Part shown: in pieces, positions 13,571-23,746 of the stretch
Numbering within the stretch: the stretch's first letter is position 1
Layout: each line of letters opens with the position of its first letter
Position numbers and translations under genes: made by a program
Notes under the pieces: generated by a model
The model's database searches: none
What the model was told of the DNA's origin: nothing
Seen by the model: only the letters and a program-made list of their open reading frames with translations
From: Convolutriloba macropyga
Lineage: Eukaryota
Direction of reading: 5' to 3'
Assembly: GCF_964194025.1 (NCBI RefSeq)
Contig: NC_134468.1
Coordinates: 44,020,001-44,084,000 of the forward strand
DNA: 64,000 nucleotides

Positions 13571-13813
13571 TTATTCGATATCAGGTTGGGTGTAAATGTA
13601 TCCATCTGTAGGCTTGATTGCGGGGGGTAGACAAGCGGACCCGTCTCCATTTTGTGACTTCCAGCACACTGGCGTACTCGCACCACACTTACACTCGAAC
13701 TTGAAATTGTCCTTGGTCGCATCCAGACAATAAGCTCCCATGGAACAAACATCTGTGCTCTTGTACTCTGTCACCGAGTCAATTACTGGTGGTACCTCTT
13801 CATTTCCCTGGGT
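13571..13813 (-). CDS. Terminal exon of small six-Cys peptide (C-x5-C-x11-CxC-x6-C-x10-C, CART-like spacing)
   Basis: Acceptor gaatgtttag| then an open frame TQGNEEVPPVIDSVTEYKSTDVCSMGAYC...YIYTQPDIE*; AATAAA at and just after the stop; paralogs at 52305, 55199 and 57823. Confidence 0.75.
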   Translation of the reverse strand, partial: TQGNEEVPPVIDSVTEYKSTDVCSMGAYCLDATKDNFKFECKCGASTPVCWKSQNGDGSACLPPAIKPTDGYIYTQPDIE

Positions 13814-13975: not shown

Positions 13976-14467
13976 TATAACAACCCGGTAGGTATTAAAA
14001 AAAACGAACGTTTGAATTGCGAATGCGGGATTCGAGATTGGGTTGTTTTAGTTTTTTTTGTTGAAATTAACAACTTCAATTTAATTGATCTTACCTTGTT
14101 TTCTGTGCTCTATCTTTTTCTTTGGAAAATCGACAAAGTAAGTTTTCAGAATATTGAATTAAACTGAATAGGTTATTTATAAAAGCTTGTTGAGAAAAAG
14201 CTCAACTAACTGGATTGTAAGCAGAAAAGTCTCAAGTGTCGTTTGGGCGAAGGAACATGGCCAACGGAACAAATTCTCAATTAGCTCTTGAAACACGCAA
14301 AAGCTAAATAAATTGCGTGCCAAATTGTGTTATCAATAATAAATACACTATGGTCCAGTGGCACGAAAGTAAAACAAAGCTTGAGCGGAAAGGCGCTATA
14401 AGATTAATAGATTAATAGCTGGAACATTATACTGCCTAAGGAATAATAATGGGGTAGGGCTGTTACA
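13976..14467 (-). repeat. 3' LTR, copy 2 (492 bp)
   Basis: Differs from the 5' LTR by one substitution (plus strand aacatgg vs aacctgg) and one A-run length, by eye. Confidence 0.95.
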
Positions 14468-14503: not shown

Positions 14504-15496
14504 CTATTCTGTCTCCGAACCCGATGAGGACGATGAGCTCGAAGAACGCGAGCGAGGCTTCCTTTTTATTTTCTTGTTTTGTGGATTATGATTTCCCCGA
14601 AGTAATTGAGAACGCAGGGAGCGGAATTCGTTTTGGAGACCTCTGAGGTGACGACAGGTCGTTGAACAGGACTCAGAGGCAGACATAGTGTCCGTATTCA
14701 CCCCTGCATTGCGGACCTTAGAGGATTTTGGCTTTTTAGGTTGTTTTTTCTCCAGCGTAACAACCTTCGCGGAGAGCAGACGATTTGCCGTCCGAGAATC
14801 ATCTAGCATTTGATTCAGCTCGGAAATGCGAGCTTTTAGTTTGTCGATCTCATTGGTAGCCTGGTAAAGGTCACGCTCGTGAGCCTCACGAGATCGACGA
14901 AGTCGAATAAGTTGATCTCGAAGGTCGCGATTTTCAGCCGAGTTGTCAACAGGGATAGCGACTAGATCCGCAGGATCCAGCAGAGGCCTTCGCCTTGCAT
15001 TGTAAGGATCCTGAAGGCGAACTTTCCCATTGCGGTAAAATTCAACAACCCGCAACACGGCATGCAAATTTGCTGAATACACCAAACCGTTGAGGCGTAA
15101 GGGACCGTTGCGAGGTGGACCCATAGCCTGGCGTGAATTGCTTCCTTCGAGCGGGCTGCTTCTCGAACCCGAAGCTGCTGTTGCAGAAGCAGTCTGAACG
15201 ACTGGAATGTTTTTGGAAGGCGGACAAAAGATGATTGTCATTTCATCCGAAGAAGCAGATGAGCAGACATCCGTGTGCGGCTGAGGATCCCGATTTTGCG
15301 AGAGGTTTTGACGGAACTCAAGCAACTGATCACTTGCCCAGTTGCCAGTTATTCCTGTATCTGCTTGAGAGTCCATACTATCGTCCAGCAACGGAATTGC
15401 AGGCGAAGAAGCACCTGAAAGAAGATCTGTGTCCAGAAGAATATCAGGGCCTGGAGAAGCAGGCATAGTGTTGATTGACTCTGAGCTTGTCGACAT
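14504..15496 (-). CDS. ORF4: 330-aa accessory protein of unknown function, copy 2
   Basis: Intact ORF between env and the 3' LTR. Ser/Pro/acidic N-terminus, heptad coiled coil (LRDQLIRLRRSREAH...LEKK), basic clusters, Arg/Ser tail; ATG preceded by ttgttttag. Confidence 0.85.
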   Translation of the reverse strand: MSTSSESINTMPASPGPDILLDTDLLSGASSPAIPLLDDSMDSQADTGITGNWASDQLLEFRQNLSQNRDPQPHTDVCSSASSDEMTIIFCPPSKNIPVVQTASATAASGSRSSPLEGSNSRQAMGPPRNGPLRLNGLVYSANLHAVLRVVEFYRNGKVRLQDPYNARRRPLLDPADLVAIPVDNSAENRDLRDQLIRLRRSREAHERDLYQATNEIDKLKARISELNQMLDDSRTANRLLSAKVVTLEKKQPKKPKSSKVRNAGVNTDTMSASESCSTTCRHLRGLQNEFRSLRSQLLRGNHNPQNKKIKRKPRSRSSSSSSSSGSETE

Positions 15497-15670
15497 CTAA
15501 AACAAGCAATGTCAATCATTTGTGTACAGAAGTGCATCAGGGCTGCTAGTGATTGATGAACGAAAAGAAAAAAATTTTGAATGAAGCAAAAGACAAAAAT
15601 CAGAAAGCGGCAGTTTTTTTTTTTTTTTTCTAAGACAGAACACTATAGGCGATAAAGAGTCAACCTGTGC

Positions 15671-17725
15671 TTAAATTTTTGTTGTGTAGCGGGCAGAATT
15701 TAATTGTGCTGACGGATAAATTGAATCAACTATTACAGTGCGATTATCAGGGTTCCCATCAGTTTCATTGACAAGTTGGTCATGATTGACAGGCGCAGAT
15801 GCGTGTATATTATTTATGTGATTTTGAAGCATCTGCGTAAAAGGCGCAATGGGGTTAAGAAGCCGGAAAACTGTCCAGAAAGGAACTCCATGAGAAAGGA
15901 GCCTAAGCGCAAATACAAGTTTCAATATATAGATAAAGAGCCCTAGAAGCGCTAAAGTTGTTAGCGTAATTACAGTGCACCTCTCGGCGTAGTACCAACC
16001 ACCACTCGCAACAGATTGCAAATCAATCAAATATTTCCAAGCCGCCAAATTTTCTAGTTCTTCGGAAACGCTTGGATTAAAATGCATTAAACCAGGATGA
16101 GAATATTGGCTGCGAGGATCAAGATATACTTCTCGTCCCGAAATTGTTCGGCGCGAGTATTTTAGAACCCGAGCCTTTGCGCTCTGCCTCAAGTTCTGAT
16201 AAGAAAAGAGACCAGCGGTGTGTAATGAAGGTAAGTTATCACTAAAATCTAGATGGCTGAAAACACTTAGAGATTCGGGCGTACGTGCGACCGAATAATC
16301 ATCTCCATAGTGCATCCAGATGCCTTCAGACGTGCGGTACATGTAAGGTGCTATGGGATCACAAGCAGTCAAAGTATAGTTTGGATACACAACTTGTGTT
16401 ATCGGATTCATGAAACGAATTTGCGTATCATTGCCCAAAAGAACAGGAACTTCCTCTGTGCAGTAGGGGAAGTCTGCAATTCGAGCTTCGACTTTAACAC
16501 ATTTGTGGACGTAAAGAACAGCTCCCGCTTTTTCAGCATGTGTGCCTAACATGGAACCGGATCCGAGGAAGAGATTAGGATTGTCCAAGTTTGACGCTAA
16601 AGAAATGAGTCCTTTTAAGATCATCTGACGCGTATTGCAAATTTCATTTTTGATGAAATTTACAATTCGTTGACGCGAAAGATGCGCGTTGACATGCACA
16701 AACTCAATTTTTGTCCCATAGACTAAGTTTGGAATTGCATCTGTGTTGTAATCTATTTCCGGAAGTTGCTCCGTTATAGGTTCAATGACAAAGTAAACAC
16801 CAGAGTAGGTTGTTGGTCGGACCTTATATGAGCAAACACTAACAGTTGTGTTCAGAAGTTCTATATAAAAGACGCGGGAATCATCCCTGGAAGCAGTTTT
16901 TCCACTCAAATACATTGAATCAGCAGAAGAGATCTGAACGCCAGGATGCTCCGGAGAGAACTCAAATATTGATTTAATCTCACACTGACCGTAGAAATGC
17001 GGTAAATAGGTGATTGAGTCATGCTGAAAGTCAGAACCTGGAAAACTGCAGGACGTGGATCTTTCATTGGGATCTGTCAAGATTAAGGAACATGGAGAGC
17101 TGGTTTTGTCCAAAGTTGCGACTACTTTGCCGATGGTTAGTTTTGCGTTTATAACACCAGATGCGTGAATTTTCGATCCACCTGGGGTAATCCAATCCAC
17201 AGGCCAGGTGAAGTAAATTCCAGCTTTCTTGCCACCACGCATGAAAGAGTACGAATAGTCAAATACCTTGAAATTGCCAGGTTTGTATGGTCTACCATCA
17301 AACAAAAGATCCCCCTCAGTCATTTTAAAATTTTCATCTGCAAAACCTGGAAGTTTGAAATTGCGACCACTCCAAATTGCTCTGCAAACCCAAGTTTCTA
17401 ATGCATAGAAAGTAGGCACTAGGCGAGAATACTCTTTTAAATACACAGAATCATCAAATCGGGCAGAATGCGCTAATCCGGTAACAGCGTAAGAAGCTTG
17501 AAACATGCAAAAACTCATTTGAATATCAACTTCGGGCGCATGAAGAACCAAACCACCAAAAGTAATGTTTTTGGTGCTTAATTTATCAGGCGTACACTGT
17601 TCACTCGGAAGAAGCGAGTAAATTTTTGTTGTGAGAACTTCCTCGATGTCATAGCCTACAAGTGTAGAGAAACTGCAATCTACTAGGCAAGTGAACAACA
17701 GCAACACTTGCTGCACAAAGAGCAT
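15671..17725 (-). CDS. env: env-like type I membrane glycoprotein (chuvirus/gB-type-like), copy 2
   Basis: Hydrophobic signal peptide, Cys-rich ectodomain with N-glycosylation sequons (NIT, NTT, NDT, NYT), C-terminal TM (VITLTTLALLGLFIYILKLVFAL); block GAVLYVHKCVKV..C.EEVPV..FMNPIT..T..CDP..P..Y...G.W recalled as chuvirus-G-like. Confidence 0.88.
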   Translation of the reverse strand: MLFVQQVLLLFTCLVDCSFSTLVGYDIEEVLTTKIYSLLPSEQCTPDKLSTKNITFGGLVLHAPEVDIQMSFCMFQASYAVTGLAHSARFDDSVYLKEYSRLVPTFYALETWVCRAIWSGRNFKLPGFADENFKMTEGDLLFDGRPYKPGNFKVFDYSYSFMRGGKKAGIYFTWPVDWITPGGSKIHASGVINAKLTIGKVVATLDKTSSPCSLILTDPNERSTSCSFPGSDFQHDSITYLPHFYGQCEIKSIFEFSPEHPGVQISSADSMYLSGKTASRDDSRVFYIELLNTTVSVCSYKVRPTTYSGVYFVIEPITEQLPEIDYNTDAIPNLVYGTKIEFVHVNAHLSRQRIVNFIKNEICNTRQMILKGLISLASNLDNPNLFLGSGSMLGTHAEKAGAVLYVHKCVKVEARIADFPYCTEEVPVLLGNDTQIRFMNPITQVVYPNYTLTACDPIAPYMYRTSEGIWMHYGDDYSVARTPESLSVFSHLDFSDNLPSLHTAGLFSYQNLRQSAKARVLKYSRRTISGREVYLDPRSQYSHPGLMHFNPSVSEELENLAAWKYLIDLQSVASGGWYYAERCTVITLTTLALLGLFIYILKLVFALRLLSHGVPFWTVFRLLNPIAPFTQMLQNHINNIHASAPVNHDQLVNETDGNPDNRTVIVDSIYPSAQLNSARYTTKI

Positions 17726-17734
17726 CTAAACAAA

Positions 17735-20700
17735 TCACTCAACATCACTGTCTGAATCAAAATAAGCTAAACGGAAAAATCCTGGATGCCGTGCATGATC
17801 AGCAACAGCTCTACGCGGTCGTTGAGGAACTGTTGTGGAACCTGAACCACTTTGATTTTCTGACAAAAAAACTGGCGGTGACGGAATGGCGGAACTTGTA
17901 GGGTTAGTAGTGTTTTGTAACCTATCAGAGGTAGAAGCCTGTCTTTCAGATAAATCAACCAACACAAGATCATCGTCTTCAGGGACGATGGGTTGAGGAC
18001 TTGGTCTTACAGTTTGGTTGGAACGATTTCTGCGCAACCGCTGGTCTGATGGTGTAAAAGGTTTAATGCGATCGTAATGAGCAATCTGTTGTTTTTGAGT
18101 TTTGACGTCTTGTAGAACAAAATTAATTTGGTTAATAACCTTTTTCACGCAATGAGGTCCAGACCAGAAGCTCTTTAATTTAGGAGTTTGACCCTGTGAG
18201 CACACTGGTGAATGAAGAAGCACCAGGTCTCCTTCTTTATACGAAGGACCATGCTTCTTTTTGTCAAAGATAGCTTTTTGTCGGCGCATTTCCCATCCGT
18301 TTTTCTGAATTACGGACTCGAAAATGGTGGAAGATTCAACTAAACGTTGAAAAACATAATCCCGATGACCAACAATTGGAGTGGGCAATGTTGGATATAG
18401 CATATCAACAGGCATGCGCATTTCTTTCCCAAAAACTAATCGGAAAGGCGATTGACCTGTCGACTCATGAACTGCAGAACGATAGGCCATCATGAAAGAT
18501 TGAAGATGAACAGACCAAACTTCATGCCGTTCTGCGCAGTACTTTGCCAACCCATCTTCCAAAGTGCGATTTATGCGTTCCACTTTTGCATTTCCTTGCG
18601 GGTGGTAAGGAGTAGATCTTGAGCTGGTTAACTGCAGCTTATTGCACATATCTGCGAAAAGGCGCGATGTGAACTGCGAACCGTTGTCACTGTGAATATA
18701 TTCAGGTACACCAAATCGGGTGACCCATTGATCTAAGAAAGTGCTACAGATTGTCTCAGCCTTAATGTTCTGTAGGGGTGCAGCCTCGAACCAGCGAGTA
18801 AAATGGTCTCCAATCATTAGGATGTATTTATAAAATTTCTCATTCAACCGACTTTCTGGGAGAGGGCCAAGGATATCAACTGACACGCAAAGAAAAGGTT
18901 CATAGAATGCCCAGAGCTGCATTTCTTGCTGATGTGATTGTTTTGGATTCTTTCGTTTTTGACAAGTTGCACAACCTGAGATCCAGGAGTCCACATCATT
19001 TTTCAATCCTGGCCAGTAAAATCGCTGACGTACCCGATCAAGAGTTTTCTTATTGCCTAAATGTCCTGAAGCAGGTGAATCATGCAACTGAAGAAGAACT
19101 TTTTGAACCTGGTTAAGTGGAACGCAACACTGATGGAAAAGTGTAGATCCATCCAGTTGTTGAAATAGCCGGTACAAAACACCATCAATAATTTTCAATG
19201 TCTCGAATTGCTGCCAGTAACACTGCAAAGCAGATGGTCTACCAAACATTAAGGATCGAGGTGGTTTCTCACCTGTTCGACACCATGATTTGACTACAGA
19301 CAGAGTTTTATCCTGATCTTGCGTTTCTGAAAAGTGCGGAGACGAAGAAACAGATGTGACAGAAGTAGCAGATAAATTCAAAGGTGGTAATCTGGAAAGA
19401 GCATCAGCATTTGCAATAGTTTTTCCAGGCCGATGGACAATTTCAAAATTGAACATACTTAATTTTTCTAGCCAACGCGCTACTATTGCATCAGGCTCTT
19501 TGAACGAATAGAGCCAAACGAGGGCGCGATGGTCAGTAATTATCTGAAATTTTTGCCCAAGAAGAAATTCTTTGAAGTATGATGTGAAGAACACCACAGC
19601 AAAGAGTTCACGTTTCGTAGCCGAGTAGTTTCTTTGACCTTTTTGCAGCACTTTGCTAGCATATGCAATAACCTTTTCACCATTTTTCTGTTTTTGAGAT
19701 AGCACTGCGCCAATTCCAGTAAGCGATGCGTCAGTACAAAGAACGAATTGATCCTTTTCATTTGGAAAACCTAAGATTGGAGCGGATACTAGCGCTGTTT
19801 TCAATTTCTCGAAAGCTTTTTGGCAGTCTGCTGTCCAATGGAACGTTGTTGTTTTATTCATCAATTGGTACAGAGGGTTCGCAATCAAACCAAAATTGAG
19901 AACAAACTTTCTATAGAAGCCAACAAGGCCCATGAACGATCTTAACTGACGAATAGTTTGTGGAACTGGGTATTTCTCCACAGCTGCTATTTTAGCAGGA
20001 TCAGTGTGTATCCCGTCAGCAGAGACTACATGACCCAGAAATACTAACTTCGTTTGGAATAAGGAACATTTGGCAGGTGAAATTTTCAAATTTGCTTCCC
20101 GTATGCGTTGGAACACAAGTTGAAGACGATGTATGTGTTCCTCGAAAGAACGACCAAAGACTATAATATCATCAAGATAAACCAGGACAATTTCATATGT
20201 CAACCCTGATAAAACAATTTCCATTAGTCTTTGAAATGCTCCAGGGGCATTGCAAAGACCCATTGGCATCCGTTTCCACTGATACAGTCCAAACGGCGCA
20301 ATGAAAGAAGTAAGGTGTCGATCTTCTTCATCAATCTCCATTTGATGAAATCCACTGCAAAGGTCGAGGCTAGAGAAGAAAATGCTTCCCTCGAGATTAT
20401 TTAGAATATCTGATATGCGCGGAAGAGGCCACGATGTTTTGACTGTTTGGGCATTTAGTTTCCGATAGTCAATAACAAGACGATATGACCCGTCACGTTT
20501 CGGAACTAACACGGTTGGAGCTGCCCACTCGGAATGAGTAGGAGATATGAGATCTTTTTCTTGGAGTTTGGTTATCTTATCCTTGAGATCTTTTCTTTTA
20601 GAAGGATTCATTGATCTGTATGGCACTCGGCTAGGCTGGGCGTCATCTTTCAACTGAATACGCAGTTTATGCAAATTACATGAGCCTAGATCCCATTTGT

Positions 20701-21604
20701 CGGTAGCAAACACGTCTGCAAACTGCTTGAGTAGACTAAAAGCGTCCTTTTGTTGTTTTTTAGTGAGAGTGCTGAACTTTGATTTAAACAACTGCATCAA
20801 AGTTTCAGCTGAATTGATGTCAACAGCATTGAAACCAACAGTTTGAAGGACAGTCTCGTTGTAGGGTAAGATTTGCGCAATAGTTTGCGAAGGATATAAA
20901 GTTACGGAATTACAAGTAGGGTTAAGTACTCTTAGCCAAAATTCATTTTGAGAAACTGTTACAAGAGACGAGGCCACTAAAAGGGAGTTTAAACTGGTGA
21001 AACCTACGTGGGGCTCAACCAAACCCACAGTCGCGTCAGACGAAGTACGCGAACTGCTTGAAGAAAACTTATGCGCATGATGTGACTTTAGATTACATTT
21101 TACGAGTGCTTCACTTCGAGGTGGAATAAGGAAACGCGAAGTTACAGAACAAAGCGAAGTCTCAGTTGTCGGAGAATTATCCTCAAACCACTGAGACAAC
21201 GGACTGATACATTCCAGTACTGCGTCACCTACATCTAATAAACCCCGAGAGAAGTCTACTGCACATTTTTGTTTGTGTAGGAGATCAAAACCGACCACAC
21301 AAGGAACACTGAGGTGGGCACAAATGTAAAATTTGAAAGAAAACATGGGACCATTTTTAAACCAACGACATGGAAGCAAGCACATACCCTTAAATTGAAG
21401 CATAGAGCCATTTATGGCGGATGCTTGGATATCAGATGCTTCCAATGTAAGCGAAGGGCTAAAGTTGCTGAACTTGCCAAAAACATCGGCACGAATTACA
21501 CTAATTGAAGCACCTGAATCAATCAGGGCAGGCAGTATATTATCGGCGATTATTATTTTGGAAAGAAGCGACTGTATGCCAAAAATACGCTTGTTTTGTG
21601 CCAT
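17735..21604 (-). CDS. pol: Pol polyprotein, copy 2
   Basis: As copy 1, with two aa differences (SLMFGRP, GQTPKLK). Confidence 0.98.
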   Translation of the reverse strand: MAQNKRIFGIQSLLSKIIIADNILPALIDSGASISVIRADVFGKFSNFSPSLTLEASDIQASAINGSMLQFKGMCLLPCRWFKNGPMFSFKFYICAHLSVPCVVGFDLLHKQKCAVDFSRGLLDVGDAVLECISPLSQWFEDNSPTTETSLCSVTSRFLIPPRSEALVKCNLKSHHAHKFSSSSSRTSSDATVGLVEPHVGFTSLNSLLVASSLVTVSQNEFWLRVLNPTCNSVTLYPSQTIAQILPYNETVLQTVGFNAVDINSAETLMQLFKSKFSTLTKKQQKDAFSLLKQFADVFATDKWDLGSCNLHKLRIQLKDDAQPSRVPYRSMNPSKRKDLKDKITKLQEKDLISPTHSEWAAPTVLVPKRDGSYRLVIDYRKLNAQTVKTSWPLPRISDILNNLEGSIFFSSLDLCSGFHQMEIDEEDRHLTSFIAPFGLYQWKRMPMGLCNAPGAFQRLMEIVLSGLTYEIVLVYLDDIIVFGRSFEEHIHRLQLVFQRIREANLKISPAKCSLFQTKLVFLGHVVSADGIHTDPAKIAAVEKYPVPQTIRQLRSFMGLVGFYRKFVLNFGLIANPLYQLMNKTTTFHWTADCQKAFEKLKTALVSAPILGFPNEKDQFVLCTDASLTGIGAVLSQKQKNGEKVIAYASKVLQKGQRNYSATKRELFAVVFFTSYFKEFLLGQKFQIITDHRALVWLYSFKEPDAIVARWLEKLSMFNFEIVHRPGKTIANADALSRLPPLNLSATSVTSVSSSPHFSETQDQDKTLSVVKSWCRTGEKPPRSLMFGRPSALQCYWQQFETLKIIDGVLYRLFQQLDGSTLFHQCCVPLNQVQKVLLQLHDSPASGHLGNKKTLDRVRQRFYWPGLKNDVDSWISGCATCQKRKNPKQSHQQEMQLWAFYEPFLCVSVDILGPLPESRLNEKFYKYILMIGDHFTRWFEAAPLQNIKAETICSTFLDQWVTRFGVPEYIHSDNGSQFTSRLFADMCNKLQLTSSRSTPYHPQGNAKVERINRTLEDGLAKYCAERHEVWSVHLQSFMMAYRSAVHESTGQSPFRLVFGKEMRMPVDMLYPTLPTPIVGHRDYVFQRLVESSTIFESVIQKNGWEMRRQKAIFDKKKHGPSYKEGDLVLLHSPVCSQGQTPKLKSFWSGPHCVKKVINQINFVLQDVKTQKQQIAHYDRIKPFTPSDQRLRRNRSNQTVRPSPQPIVPEDDDLVLVDLSERQASTSDRLQNTTNPTSSAIPSPPVFLSENQSGSGSTTVPQRPRRAVADHARHPGFFRLAYFDSDSDVE

Positions 21605-21661
21605 GGGTTATTAAAAATGGAGAACAAACTCTTTCAAGGTGGACTATGGCGATAGAAGAAG

Positions 21662-22678
21662 CTATCGGTTAGAGTATGGTTTTGACTCTGGGCAATTACG
21701 TCGCTGATGTTGAGAAGAACCACAGTTCCAACAATTTTTGCAATTATTTTTAGTATGACCTTTACGATTACAACCATAACAAATAGTTGGTCCGGTGAAC
21801 CTAACTTTTCTTTCATTACTGATTGAACGACTGTGTGAATTGTCAAGAAACGTTTTTCGCGGAGAGGAAGATTGACGACGTTCTCCGTGTTGCGATGGGC
21901 TACGAGAGAAAGTAGGTGACTTGCGTTTGTTAAACGGAGACAATCTGTAAGGAGAGTTGCTCCTGCGACCCGATTTTTTGTTCATCGGACGAGAACGTGG
22001 TTGGTAACTAACTTGTCCGGCCATGAGTTTATCAACTTTACGCGAAAGTGCTTCAATGGAACTCACAGAAGTAGATGAAGGCGCAGTCTCATTTGCATTT
22101 GCTTCAAGACGGTAAATTGCGTCGAAGTGGAGTGCTGATTCTAAGGCCGCGTTAATGTCAGCCGGCTTGTTCTTTCTTAACTCTACCCTTACATGAATAT
22201 TGTGAAGGCCATCAATGAAAGATTGAAGCACAATATGGTCTCTGATTGCCTGCGTGTCTTGGGGATAAGCCTTATTAGCTAGAAGTTTGAGCTCAGCTAA
22301 AAATTCACTTACTTTTTCGGACTCGCCTTGAATACGTTTTGCAAGGGATGACCGAAAAAATTCAGGAGGTTCCTGATATTGGCGCAAAAATTGCTTTTTA
22401 AGCTCTGAATAATCATTTTTTGTTGCGTCATCTAATGACTGATAAAATTCGATAGCACTGCCTCGTAAGCGCAAGGGAAAAATAGTATGACGCTTATCAA
22501 TGTAAACCTGTTGACCAGCGCTGTCGTGTTGCGGAGTTCCATCACTATTGAATGCTTTTTTAAGCCAATTTTGTAACGAACTCAAGAGTTCGAATTGTGT
22601 TATATAGGCCTGAATATCACTTGTTCCGTTAAAAGGCTCCGGTAGAAGAAGTTTAGCTTCCAGAGCTGCGTCAGCCAT
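21662..22678 (-). CDS. gag: Gag, copy 2
   Basis: Same protein as copy 1. Confidence 0.95.
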   Translation of the reverse strand: MADAALEAKLLLPEPFNGTSDIQAYITQFELLSSLQNWLKKAFNSDGTPQHDSAGQQVYIDKRHTIFPLRLRGSAIEFYQSLDDATKNDYSELKKQFLRQYQEPPEFFRSSLAKRIQGESEKVSEFLAELKLLANKAYPQDTQAIRDHIVLQSFIDGLHNIHVRVELRKNKPADINAALESALHFDAIYRLEANANETAPSSTSVSSIEALSRKVDKLMAGQVSYQPRSRPMNKKSGRRSNSPYRLSPFNKRKSPTFSRSPSQHGERRQSSSPRKTFLDNSHSRSISNERKVRFTGPTICYGCNRKGHTKNNCKNCWNCGSSQHQRRNCPESKPYSNR

Positions 22679-23236
22679 TTTTTATTAATTACATGGAAAT
22701 AAAAAATGCTGCACAAAGTTCCAACCTTGCGATTGGACCGGCAAGTCAGATATCGGTTGTTCAAAATTGTGGGGACCAGAAAAAGCTGGCCTCTAAGAGA
22801 TAACAGAAAAGAACGCAGAGACTTTTTTTAACTTAGGATTTCAGGTCTCTCGTCTTAAGTTATGTATCGTTGAGGTTGCCGTAGCAGCCGCCGAAACCTC
22901 CCTTGCTAAGCCCCTTAGTCTTACTACGTGGGACCTACAAACACTGGGAATGTAGAAGCTGCGGAAGCAAGGAGCGTCTATTTTCCGATAAATCGGATAA
23001 CGCTTGAGAAGCCTCTGAAATCAGTACCTATTTGTCAAAGCGTTCTAAAGTTAAAGGCAATTATGGCTCATCTAAGAAAAAGAACAACCGTTATCTGTCA
23101 AGCAGATAACAAAAACGACCGAATATTTGAGTTATTTTTCTCTTTTTTTTTTTTTGTTTTTTTTTTTTTGAAAAGAAGGTAAAGAAAAAGCAGATGTTCC
23201 TGAAAATTGCAGGATAGCTTATTTTGGAAAAAAAAA

Positions 23237-23254
23237 ATCCCGAACCTGTCAACA
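23237..23254 (-). promoter_or_regulatory. Putative non-canonical primer-binding site TGTTGACAGGTTCGGGAT; also 5612-5629 and 40860-40877
   Basis: Begins 1 nt after the 5' LTR; 18 nt ending in GGGAT(T), the usual complement of a tRNA T-arm; starts TGT rather than TGG. Confidence 0.55.
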
Positions 23255-23255
23255 A

Positions 23256-23746
23256 TATAACAACCCGGTAGGTATTAAAAAAACGAACGTTTGAATTGCG
23301 AATGCGGGATTCGAGATTGGGTTGTTTTAGTTTTTTTTGTTGAAATTAACAACTTCAATTTAATTGATCTTACCTTGTTTTCTGTGCTCTATCTTTTTCT
23401 TTGGAAAATCGACAAAGTAAGTTTTCAGAATATTGAATTAAACTGAATAGGTTATTTATAAAAGCTTGTTGAGAAAAAGCTCAACTAACTGGATTGTAAG
23501 CAGAAAAGTCTCAAGTGTCGTTTGGGCGAAGGAACCTGGCCAACGGAACAAATTCTCAATTAGCTCTTGAAACACGCAAAAGCTAAATAAATTGCGTGCC
23601 AAATTGTGTTATCAATAATAAATACACTATGGTCCAGTGGCACGAAAGTAAAACAAAGCTTGAGCGGAAAGGCGCTATAAGATTAATAGATTAATAGCTG
23701 GAACATTATACTGCCTAAGGAATAATAATGGGGTAGGGCTGTTACA
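23256..23746 (-). repeat. 5' LTR, copy 2
   Basis: Direct repeat; followed by the ATAT target duplication. Confidence 0.95.
23359..23460 (-). promoter_or_regulatory. LTR signals: TATA box TATAAATA (23460-23453), splice donor AAG|GTAAGA (exon end 23374), poly(A) signal ATTAAA (23364-23359)
   Basis: Motifs read on the minus strand in U3-R-U5 order; present in all five LTRs. Confidence 0.6.

Follow-up and report, generated by a model that had tools for sequence, protein, structure and literature searches.

Stand-alone Pol and candidate spliced env and ORF4 messages in a Ty3/gypsy element of the acoel Convolutriloba macropyga

This paper describes a retroelement in the genome of the acoel Convolutriloba macropyga. 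The window that was analysed is a stretch of 64,000 nucleotides (nt) from contig NC_134468.1 of NCBI RefSeq assembly GCF_964194025.1, positions 44,020,001 to 44,084,000 of the forward strand; positions below count from its first letter. On the minus strand of this window, from 23746 to 13976, lies an intact Ty3/gypsy element with long terminal repeats (LTRs) and four reading frames, each separate: gag, pol, env and a fourth open reading frame, ORF4. That Pol is not a Gag-Pol fusion, and that its own methionine (Met) is conserved in seven lineages, is well supported by the sequences compared. How the four frames come to be translated is a more tentative matter. The reading we put first, at something short of an even chance, is that env and ORF4 would come from messenger RNAs (mRNAs) cis-spliced at a donor in the 5' LTR, and that Pol would start from its own ATG by reinitiation.

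Much of the evidence is comparative. Searches with env and pol led to 50 diverged loci, which were fetched and annotated. These comprise older sub-lineages of the window element's own family (family A), and three further families, B, C and D. Family B has an env that is about 55-60% identical to that of A, a pol with its own ATG, and an ORF4 of about 390 amino acids (aa). In family C gag and pol are fused, and in family D pol overlaps gag, with a slip-type TTTAAAC heptamer in the overlap.

In the window element, the stop of gag and the ATG of pol are 57 nt apart and in the same frame, with three further stops between them. Among 24 copies of A and B, 21 have the pol frame closed at 0-2 codons from its ATG. 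The spacer measures 47-59 nt in 14 of the 15 copies in which the end of gag was located, and all three phases occur. A frameshift, readthrough or double frameshift is ruled out by this closed frame and varying phase. A splice from gag into the CAG at pol codon 11 was also considered, and was rejected because it is not common to B.

The search for Pol relatives covered protein lengths that took in Gag-Pol fusions. With Pol residues 1-330 it found nine proteins: two from the family itself, five relatives at 41-53% identity over those residues, and two distant ones. All five external relatives begin at the same Met as the window Pol. In the tree, the seven stand-alone Pols group together (100/100), next to C and D. 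No rows were removed from this tree, which holds only relatives found here and in which the two distant rows are long branches. The initial annotation of this DNA already had Pol made apart from Gag, and that claim stands.

Splice sites were scored with a matrix built from host introns. A total of 34 host introns were called from GT, AG, frame and protein similarity alone; 3 junctions had no candidate. A motif-blind rule (a margin of 5 or an exact length) kept 29 introns and dropped 5. The 29 are all from myosin genes. Their acceptors are U/G-rich, and mostly end in TAG.

On this scale the LTR donor AAG/GTAAGA (the slash marks the joint) scores 9.1 bits, which ranks it second among 494 GT sites. 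A plain U1 pairing score did not separate it from the other GT sites. The sequence TTTGTTTAG, directly before the env ATG, scores 8.4 bits as an acceptor (rank 3 of 507 AGs, p 0.015 versus 132 other ATGs), which is at the 66th percentile of host acceptors. Directly before the ORF4 ATG, TTGCTTGTTTTAG scores 7.9 bits (rank 7 of 507, p 0.023, 52nd percentile). A YAG of more than 7 bits stands directly before 5 of the 142 sense ATGs, and two of these five are the env and ORF4 starts. If used as predicted, the sites would give joints from 23374 to 17725 for env and from 23374 to 15496 for ORF4. The primer-binding site (PBS) lies 3' of the donor, so RNA spliced from this donor would lack it.

The initial annotation had noted these motifs, along with an AG ending at 21644 near pol and a proposed TATA box, TATAAATA, 79 nt from the donor and with no ATG between. 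All are where it had put them (Table 1). As a promoter, TATAAATA does poorly: of 19 A-group LTRs, 1 has this 8-mer at the aligned columns, and 9 carry AATAAA there. With the promoter's place tentative, the statement that there is no ATG in the first exon is a conditional one.

The donor recurs in relatives. The best 5' donor of A, A2, A3 and B falls within the LTR, at 97-133 nt from its end, which is also where A4 has its second-best donor. The donor GT is retained in 15 of 19 older A-group LTRs, and 6 of 7 donor columns are invariant across four sub-lineage LTRs, versus 66 of 243 columns elsewhere. LTRs of A and B barely align, and the donor segment is among their two best local matches (E 0.086). 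C and D have no strong donor at this place in the LTR, and have donors in the leader instead. GTGAGT donors are found 3' of the PBS, the usual retroviral place, in the leaders of L069 (family C, at +332) and L067 (family D, at +202).

Acceptors were tested at or before the first ATG of a frame, with the element's remaining ATGs as the background. For env, p is 0.015 in A, 0.045 in B, 0.019 in C and 0.006 in D (Fisher 7.3e-5); for ORF4 it is 0.023, 0.045, 0.006 and 0.51 (Fisher 1.4e-3). Families A to D are related, so these combined values are not fully independent. Across the same four families there is no signal at gag (0.82) or pol (0.74). The acceptors recur in families whose spacers do not align. 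Within the A group, the env acceptor AG is retained in 11 of 11 aligned copies and the ORF4 acceptor AG in 8 of 12, with CAG in older sub-lineages. External DNA supplied one contig from 76 candidates of a metagenome scan, and none from 96 candidates of a viral scan. This contig (L114, 52% env identity) has the same 9-mer TTTGTTTAG 16 nt before its first env ATG, at rank 6 of 106. The N-termini M-F-R, M-H-R and M-L-R that gene callers gave to several external env proteins resemble translated acceptors; these were not counted as evidence.

The sharpest sign comes from family B, in which the predicted splice would complete the env start codon ahead of the signal peptide. The donor there is CAT/GTAAGT, 133 nt before the LTR end. 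AT/GT stands at the joint in 21 of 22 LTRs, 5 of which vary in the three preceding bases. The env acceptor scores 6.8 bits, its AG is retained in 14 of 15, and the base it opens on is a G in the third position of an env codon. With an LTR exon that ends in AT and an in-frame G after the acceptor, splicing would create a start codon.

The initial annotation had one LTR donor serving three singly spliced mRNAs. For env and ORF4 this idea is borne out to the extent that the sites score like host sites, recur across families and match in phase in B. For pol it is not. The proposed pol acceptor, which would open an exon at 21643, scores -1.0 bits (rank 247 of 507, p 0.56), below all 29 host acceptors (the lowest of which scores 2.1), and is not shared with B. 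With it goes the count of three acceptors.

For Pol, we rank reinitiation first, a weak splice of the foamy virus type second, and an internal promoter third. Two things put reinitiation first: LINE-1 and TART have similar junctions, of 63 and 37 nt, and Pol could then bind its own genome in cis. On the unspliced RNA, ribosomes would reinitiate after the gag stop and make Pol at a low level. Reading Pol from the genome itself would allow cis binding, and packaging without a Gag tether. In a subset of sireviruses, the pol frame carries a stop just past the end of gag (PMC5009743).

Several points weigh against this reading. Reinitiation is without positive sequence support: by eye, no TURBS-like UGGGA (TURBS: termination upstream ribosomal binding site) was seen near the gag stop, and the predicted fold of the spacer differs between A and B. 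In foamy viruses the pol acceptor is weak by its very design (PMC5035957), so that a spliced pol is compatible with a low score. The host matrix is narrow, with 29 introns from one gene family, and the env and ORF4 acceptor result rests on it: an assumed generic matrix ranks the two at 95 and 29 of 507 (p 0.23 and 0.10). The other three strong YAG/ATG sites, at 23071, 21234 and 17337, start no open reading frame. Family D has no acceptor at ORF4. In B, the env window was widened from +6 to +9 after the site had been seen; the Fisher value before that was 4.4e-4. An in-frame ATG five bases before the AG in B overlaps the pol stop (TGATG), as also happens in D (TAATG), and these overlaps fit stop-start coupling equally well. 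Then there are the candidate poly(A) signals. An ATTAAA lies just 3' of the window donor, and only sub-lineage A3 has an AATAAA similarly placed, so that A and A3 have hexamers 3' of the donor and B has none that is clear. In A2 there is an AATAAA 5' of the donor; should this serve for polyadenylation, the donor would belong to U5.

Next in probability, and clearly less likely than the reading above, is a full programme of the foamy virus type. In that case the LTR donor would on rare occasions also be joined to a weak AG, located either in the spacer or in the 3' end of gag, and Pol would be packaged by binding to the genomic RNA. LTR donor and stand-alone Pol do co-occur in the A/B clade, and C and D are without a strong donor there; this pairing is however a single evolutionary event. 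In foamy viruses, a donor in the R region goes together with a pol acceptor that lies within gag and is suboptimal (PMC5035957, PMC3694450). Some copies have fair AGs in the ATG-free zone before pol (4.5 bits in L101, 5.6 in L117, 10.1 in L126, 6.0 in L130), and the AG at 21644 is retained in 8 of 15 A-group copies. Against this, the best AG in the 173-nt ATG-free zone of the window element reaches 0.9, below all 29 host acceptors, and no acceptor position near pol was found that is common to A, A3 and B.

A rather unlikely alternative is that the acceptors mainly serve spliced-leader trans-splicing, which would cut the RNA, operon-like, into capped messages for env, ORF4 and perhaps pol. The initial annotation had mentioned it, and it is a live rival that carries more weight than could be known from the window. 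The published acoel spliced leader (PMC9911081) has 2,612 matches in the host genome within three mismatches, where a control has 0. A total of 63 exact cases continue into a common 19-nt piece ending in ATG, with a TTTYAG insert between in some only. Of these 63 loci, 30 were read, and in all 30 the leader stands ahead of repeats. Repeats of several families that begin with the leader (L225-L254, L205-L209) are here called LINE-type (long interspersed element), a label that rests on an endonuclease-like motif in 16 of the 30. They look like fossils of trans-spliced retroelement RNA, perhaps with two leader types, and it is likely from these sequences that the host trans-splices retroelement RNA. 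COX1 of this host is read by genetic code table 5, which together with the leader makes it a likely acoel by sequence. In C. elegans, Cer1 makes a subgenomic mRNA in two forms, one bearing the SL1 leader and one lacking it (PMC3315495). The AG/ATG layout of family A accommodates any leader, as it does the LTR exon. Family B, on the other hand, favours the LTR exon, as its env start is impossible in frame from a leader without a terminal AT. A strong donor is also conserved upstream in cis, and none of the 30 leader-headed loci matches proteins of these LTR families.

It is less probable still that a promoter inside gag gives rise to a pol mRNA that is unspliced or capped by the leader, with splicing or further internal starts behind env and ORF4. 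There is precedent: env of Tor3b and Tor4b is expressed from internal promoters (PMC4402516), and Tca2 has a weak promoter at the gag-pol junction (PMC2194720). In six copies checked, no ATG occurs for 99-421 nt upstream of the pol start codon. Zones of 100-170 nt without an ATG are not unusual at 142 ATGs per 9.8 kb, though, and no promoter motif was identified.

The least likely explanation has all four frames reached by reinitiation on one RNA, perhaps aided by ORF4 in the manner of the TAV protein of cauliflower mosaic virus (PMC5972666), with the donor only binding U1 against early poly(A) cleavage, as U1 at the foamy virus donor suppresses 5' polyadenylation (PMC3694450); the frames are all tightly spaced and pol and env overlap stop to start in B and D, but host-like acceptors at env and ORF4 and not at gag and pol, and the AT plus G phase match of B, are left unexplained.

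The host genome was also searched for fossil spliced copies, in which the LTR exon would be followed by a base other than G. None was found. Two env starts with an altered upstream context turned out to be chance matches in an unrelated element; the pattern used would miss a leader ending in TAG. Of 45 ORF4 starts, 38 follow an env start at the expected interval. The remaining 7 belong to truncations or deletions, and none of them is joined at 15496. This absence is neutral, since no copying is expected of spliced RNAs without a PBS. Internal deletions, present in 5 of 20 copies and in further copies, have microhomology or filler at their ends and not GT-AG. Of the 12 joints listed for four contig sets with DNA-like flat depth, none is at 23374, 21643, 17725 or 15496, which has no bearing on expression.

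Table 1 Features of the element, in window coordinates.
Feature	Position	Strand	Remarks
5' LTR	23256..23746	-	491 bp; TG...TA ends; 99.6% identity to 3' LTR
Proposed TATA box TATAAATA	23453..23460	-	79 nt from donor, no ATG between
Candidate major donor AAG/GTAAGA	23368..23376	-	Last exon base 23374; inside LTR, 118 nt before LTR end
ATTAAA	23359..23364	-	Just 3' of donor; candidate poly(A) signal, by sequence
Primer-binding site	23237..23254	-	3' of donor; assigned by position after LTR
gag	21662..22678	-	338 aa; Retrotrans_gag PF03732 (6.9e-7), zf-CCHC
gag-pol spacer	21605..21661	-	57 nt; U-rich tract; holds AG 21645-21644
pol, PR-RT-RH-IN (protease, reverse transcriptase, RNase H, integrase)	17735..21604	-	1289 aa; own ATG; Pfam RT, RH, IN
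Candidate env acceptor TTTGTTTAG	17726..17734	-	Directly before env ATG
env	15671..17725	-	684 aa; PF24664 (1.8e-20); class III gB/GP64/Monjiviricetes-like fusion glycoprotein
Candidate ORF4 acceptor TTGCTTGTTTTAG	15497..15509	-	Directly before ORF4 ATG
ORF4	14504..15496	-	330 aa
3' LTR	13976..14467	-	Second donor copy, last exon base 14095
Target-site duplication ATAT	23750-23747 and 13975-13972		4 bp

The element is young and has spread recently in the host genome. There are 38 env matches at 99-100% identity in that genome, over the first 300 env residues. Of 20 copies fetched, 15 are full length; 12 of these have an intact gag, 9 an intact pol, 13 an intact env and 12 an intact ORF4. Target-site duplications of 4 bp flank the window copy and 15 of the 20 others, and one more is common to a tandem pair. 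L038 and L041 stand in tandem and have one LTR in common.

By the features tested, the element is a member of Ty3/gypsy (Metaviridae) and of the elements with a gB-type env. Pfam gives the Pol domain order RT, RH, IN, and the top PDB matches are Ty3 structures (7q5b and 4ol8). In a PDB search, the window RT scores 372 bits to Ty3 Gag-Pol versus 126 to foamy Pol. The protease is without a Pfam match, and was assigned from a DSG motif at Pol residues 29-31. The structure model of env is of low confidence (predicted local distance difference test, pLDDT, 47); among the matches listed, all are to gB, GP64 or thogotovirus GP. Judging by sequence, the element is not a foamy virus, and is foamy-like in its stand-alone Pol and LTR donor. 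It does not show the usual, though not strictly defining, Gag-Pol expression of Metaviridae.

The primer we take to be tRNA-Leu, a label ARAGORN did not confirm. Copies L223 and L224 have about 45-65 nt of tRNA-like sequence past the PBS after the 5' LTR, and then jump to 15631 and 16213. This run-on, which ARAGORN did not call as a tRNA, is likely to be a faulty second-strand transfer that recorded the primer tRNA. The PBS in most copies departs from the run-on sequence.

ORF4 is, by its conservation, a real gene. Relatives at 41% identity are found in two external clusters. No Pfam family exceeds the cut-off, and Atlas scores are below 0.9. The AlphaFold model has a disordered N-terminal half, a coiled coil at 187-250, a helix at 274-300, and a basic, poly-Ser tail. 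ORF4 of A and of B have the same plan and little sequence likeness (E 0.057). From the basic, Ser-rich tail, and by analogy with CERV, our guess is that ORF4 may handle unspliced RNA in the nucleus. The ORF4 of families C and D (L070, L078, L062) has a coiled coil and a C-terminal DnaJ domain (E 7.7e-14, 1.6e-13 and 1.5e-16), and is by BLAST unrelated to that of A and B.

The 577-nt leader of the window element has strong acceptors at 23071 and 22934 (7.3 and 8.6 bits). It also has an upstream open reading frame (uORF) of 6 codons, and a minimal ATG-TAA uORF at 22697-22694, just 5' of gag, that is at the same time a second donor-like site. The gag mRNA might itself be spliced.

Together with its flank, the element makes up a 17.6-kb tandem repeat, of which three near-identical units lie in window positions 1-42100; this may be a recent duplication or an effect of assembly. 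At 13813, 281 nt downstream of the donor copy in the 3' LTR (14095), a host-like acceptor (6.8 bits) opens a Cys-rich host exon. Relatives of this exon are at 52305-52574, 55199-55483 and 57823-58107; two were tested and have no Pfam match. Read-through splicing from the 3' LTR donor into a host gene is possible.

A spliced env is ordinary. A Pol made independently of Gag is unusual; within the LTR elements it is the hallmark of foamy viruses, and it demands a different route for the enzymes into the particle. In Drosophila errantiviruses Pol is made as Gag-Pol, by frameshift. Gag-independent Pol is a firmer novelty here than splicing. The trait is fixed across a clade that comprises at least seven lineages, and sisters in the same genome have gag and pol fused (C) or overlapping in frameshift fashion (D). 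As these keep fused or overlapping frames, the Pol switch is open to comparative study. In addition, some 38 young copies are available in one host, with exact predicted joints. A broader proposal, doubtful and to be held loosely, is that this acoel Ty3/gypsy clade converged on the whole foamy expression plan: pol, env and accessory mRNAs without a PBS, made from the LTR donor, tether-free packaging of Pol, an ORF4 that exports RNA like Rev or CERV, and possibly competition from the leader for the acceptors. No gypsy element with this combination was found in a literature search that left most subscription papers outside and did not cover a 2003 survey of gag-pol junctions.

Each part has a counterpart elsewhere. 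Foamy viruses (Spumaretrovirinae; PMC5035957, PMC3694450) are alike in having a Gag-independent Pol with its own start, and an LTR donor 5' of the PBS. Unlike them, the window element has a Ty3-like RT, a class III env, and no credible pol acceptor that could be found. No likeness to tas or bet was noticed either, though no search was aimed at it. The Drosophila errantiviruses gypsy, ZAM, springer and idefix make env from a spliced mRNA (PMC12992720), as is predicted here, and in the springer clade an AU dinucleotide is completed to the env start codon (AU + G), which is much what is predicted for family B. They differ in having an F-type env, and upstream exons that lie before or inside gag.

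Cer1 of C. elegans, with its CERV protein (PMC10309623, PMC3315495), is a Ty3/gypsy element in a trans-splicing host, and has a spliced accessory protein with a leucine zipper and a nuclear signal. ORF4 is likened to CERV by description. Cer1 differs in having one gag-pol frame and no env. In LINE-1 and TART (PMC5972666, PMC5009743) the enzyme frame, ORF2 or pol, has its own start 63 and 37 nt after the stop of the structural frame, and reinitiation has been proposed for LINE-1 ORF2 (PMC5972666). These are non-LTR elements, without the problem of packaging into a capsid.

The Tor elements of Oikopleura (PMC4402516) are gypsy elements with an env in a marine invertebrate, and Tor3a env is spliced from the LTR transcript. 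The Tor3a donors are near the gag start and are GA, and Tor3b and Tor4b use internal promoters. Closest in overall plan are the Ty3/gypsy elements with a gB-type env called 'ancient errantiviruses' (Chary and Hayashi, PMC13524379). A term search of that paper finds neither splicing nor acoels in the main text, and no acoels in 7 supplements. These elements are alike in gag-pol-env order, class III env, intact multicopy state and Ty3-type Pol. To this, the window element adds a fourth open reading frame, a stand-alone Pol, and a candidate splice donor in the LTR.

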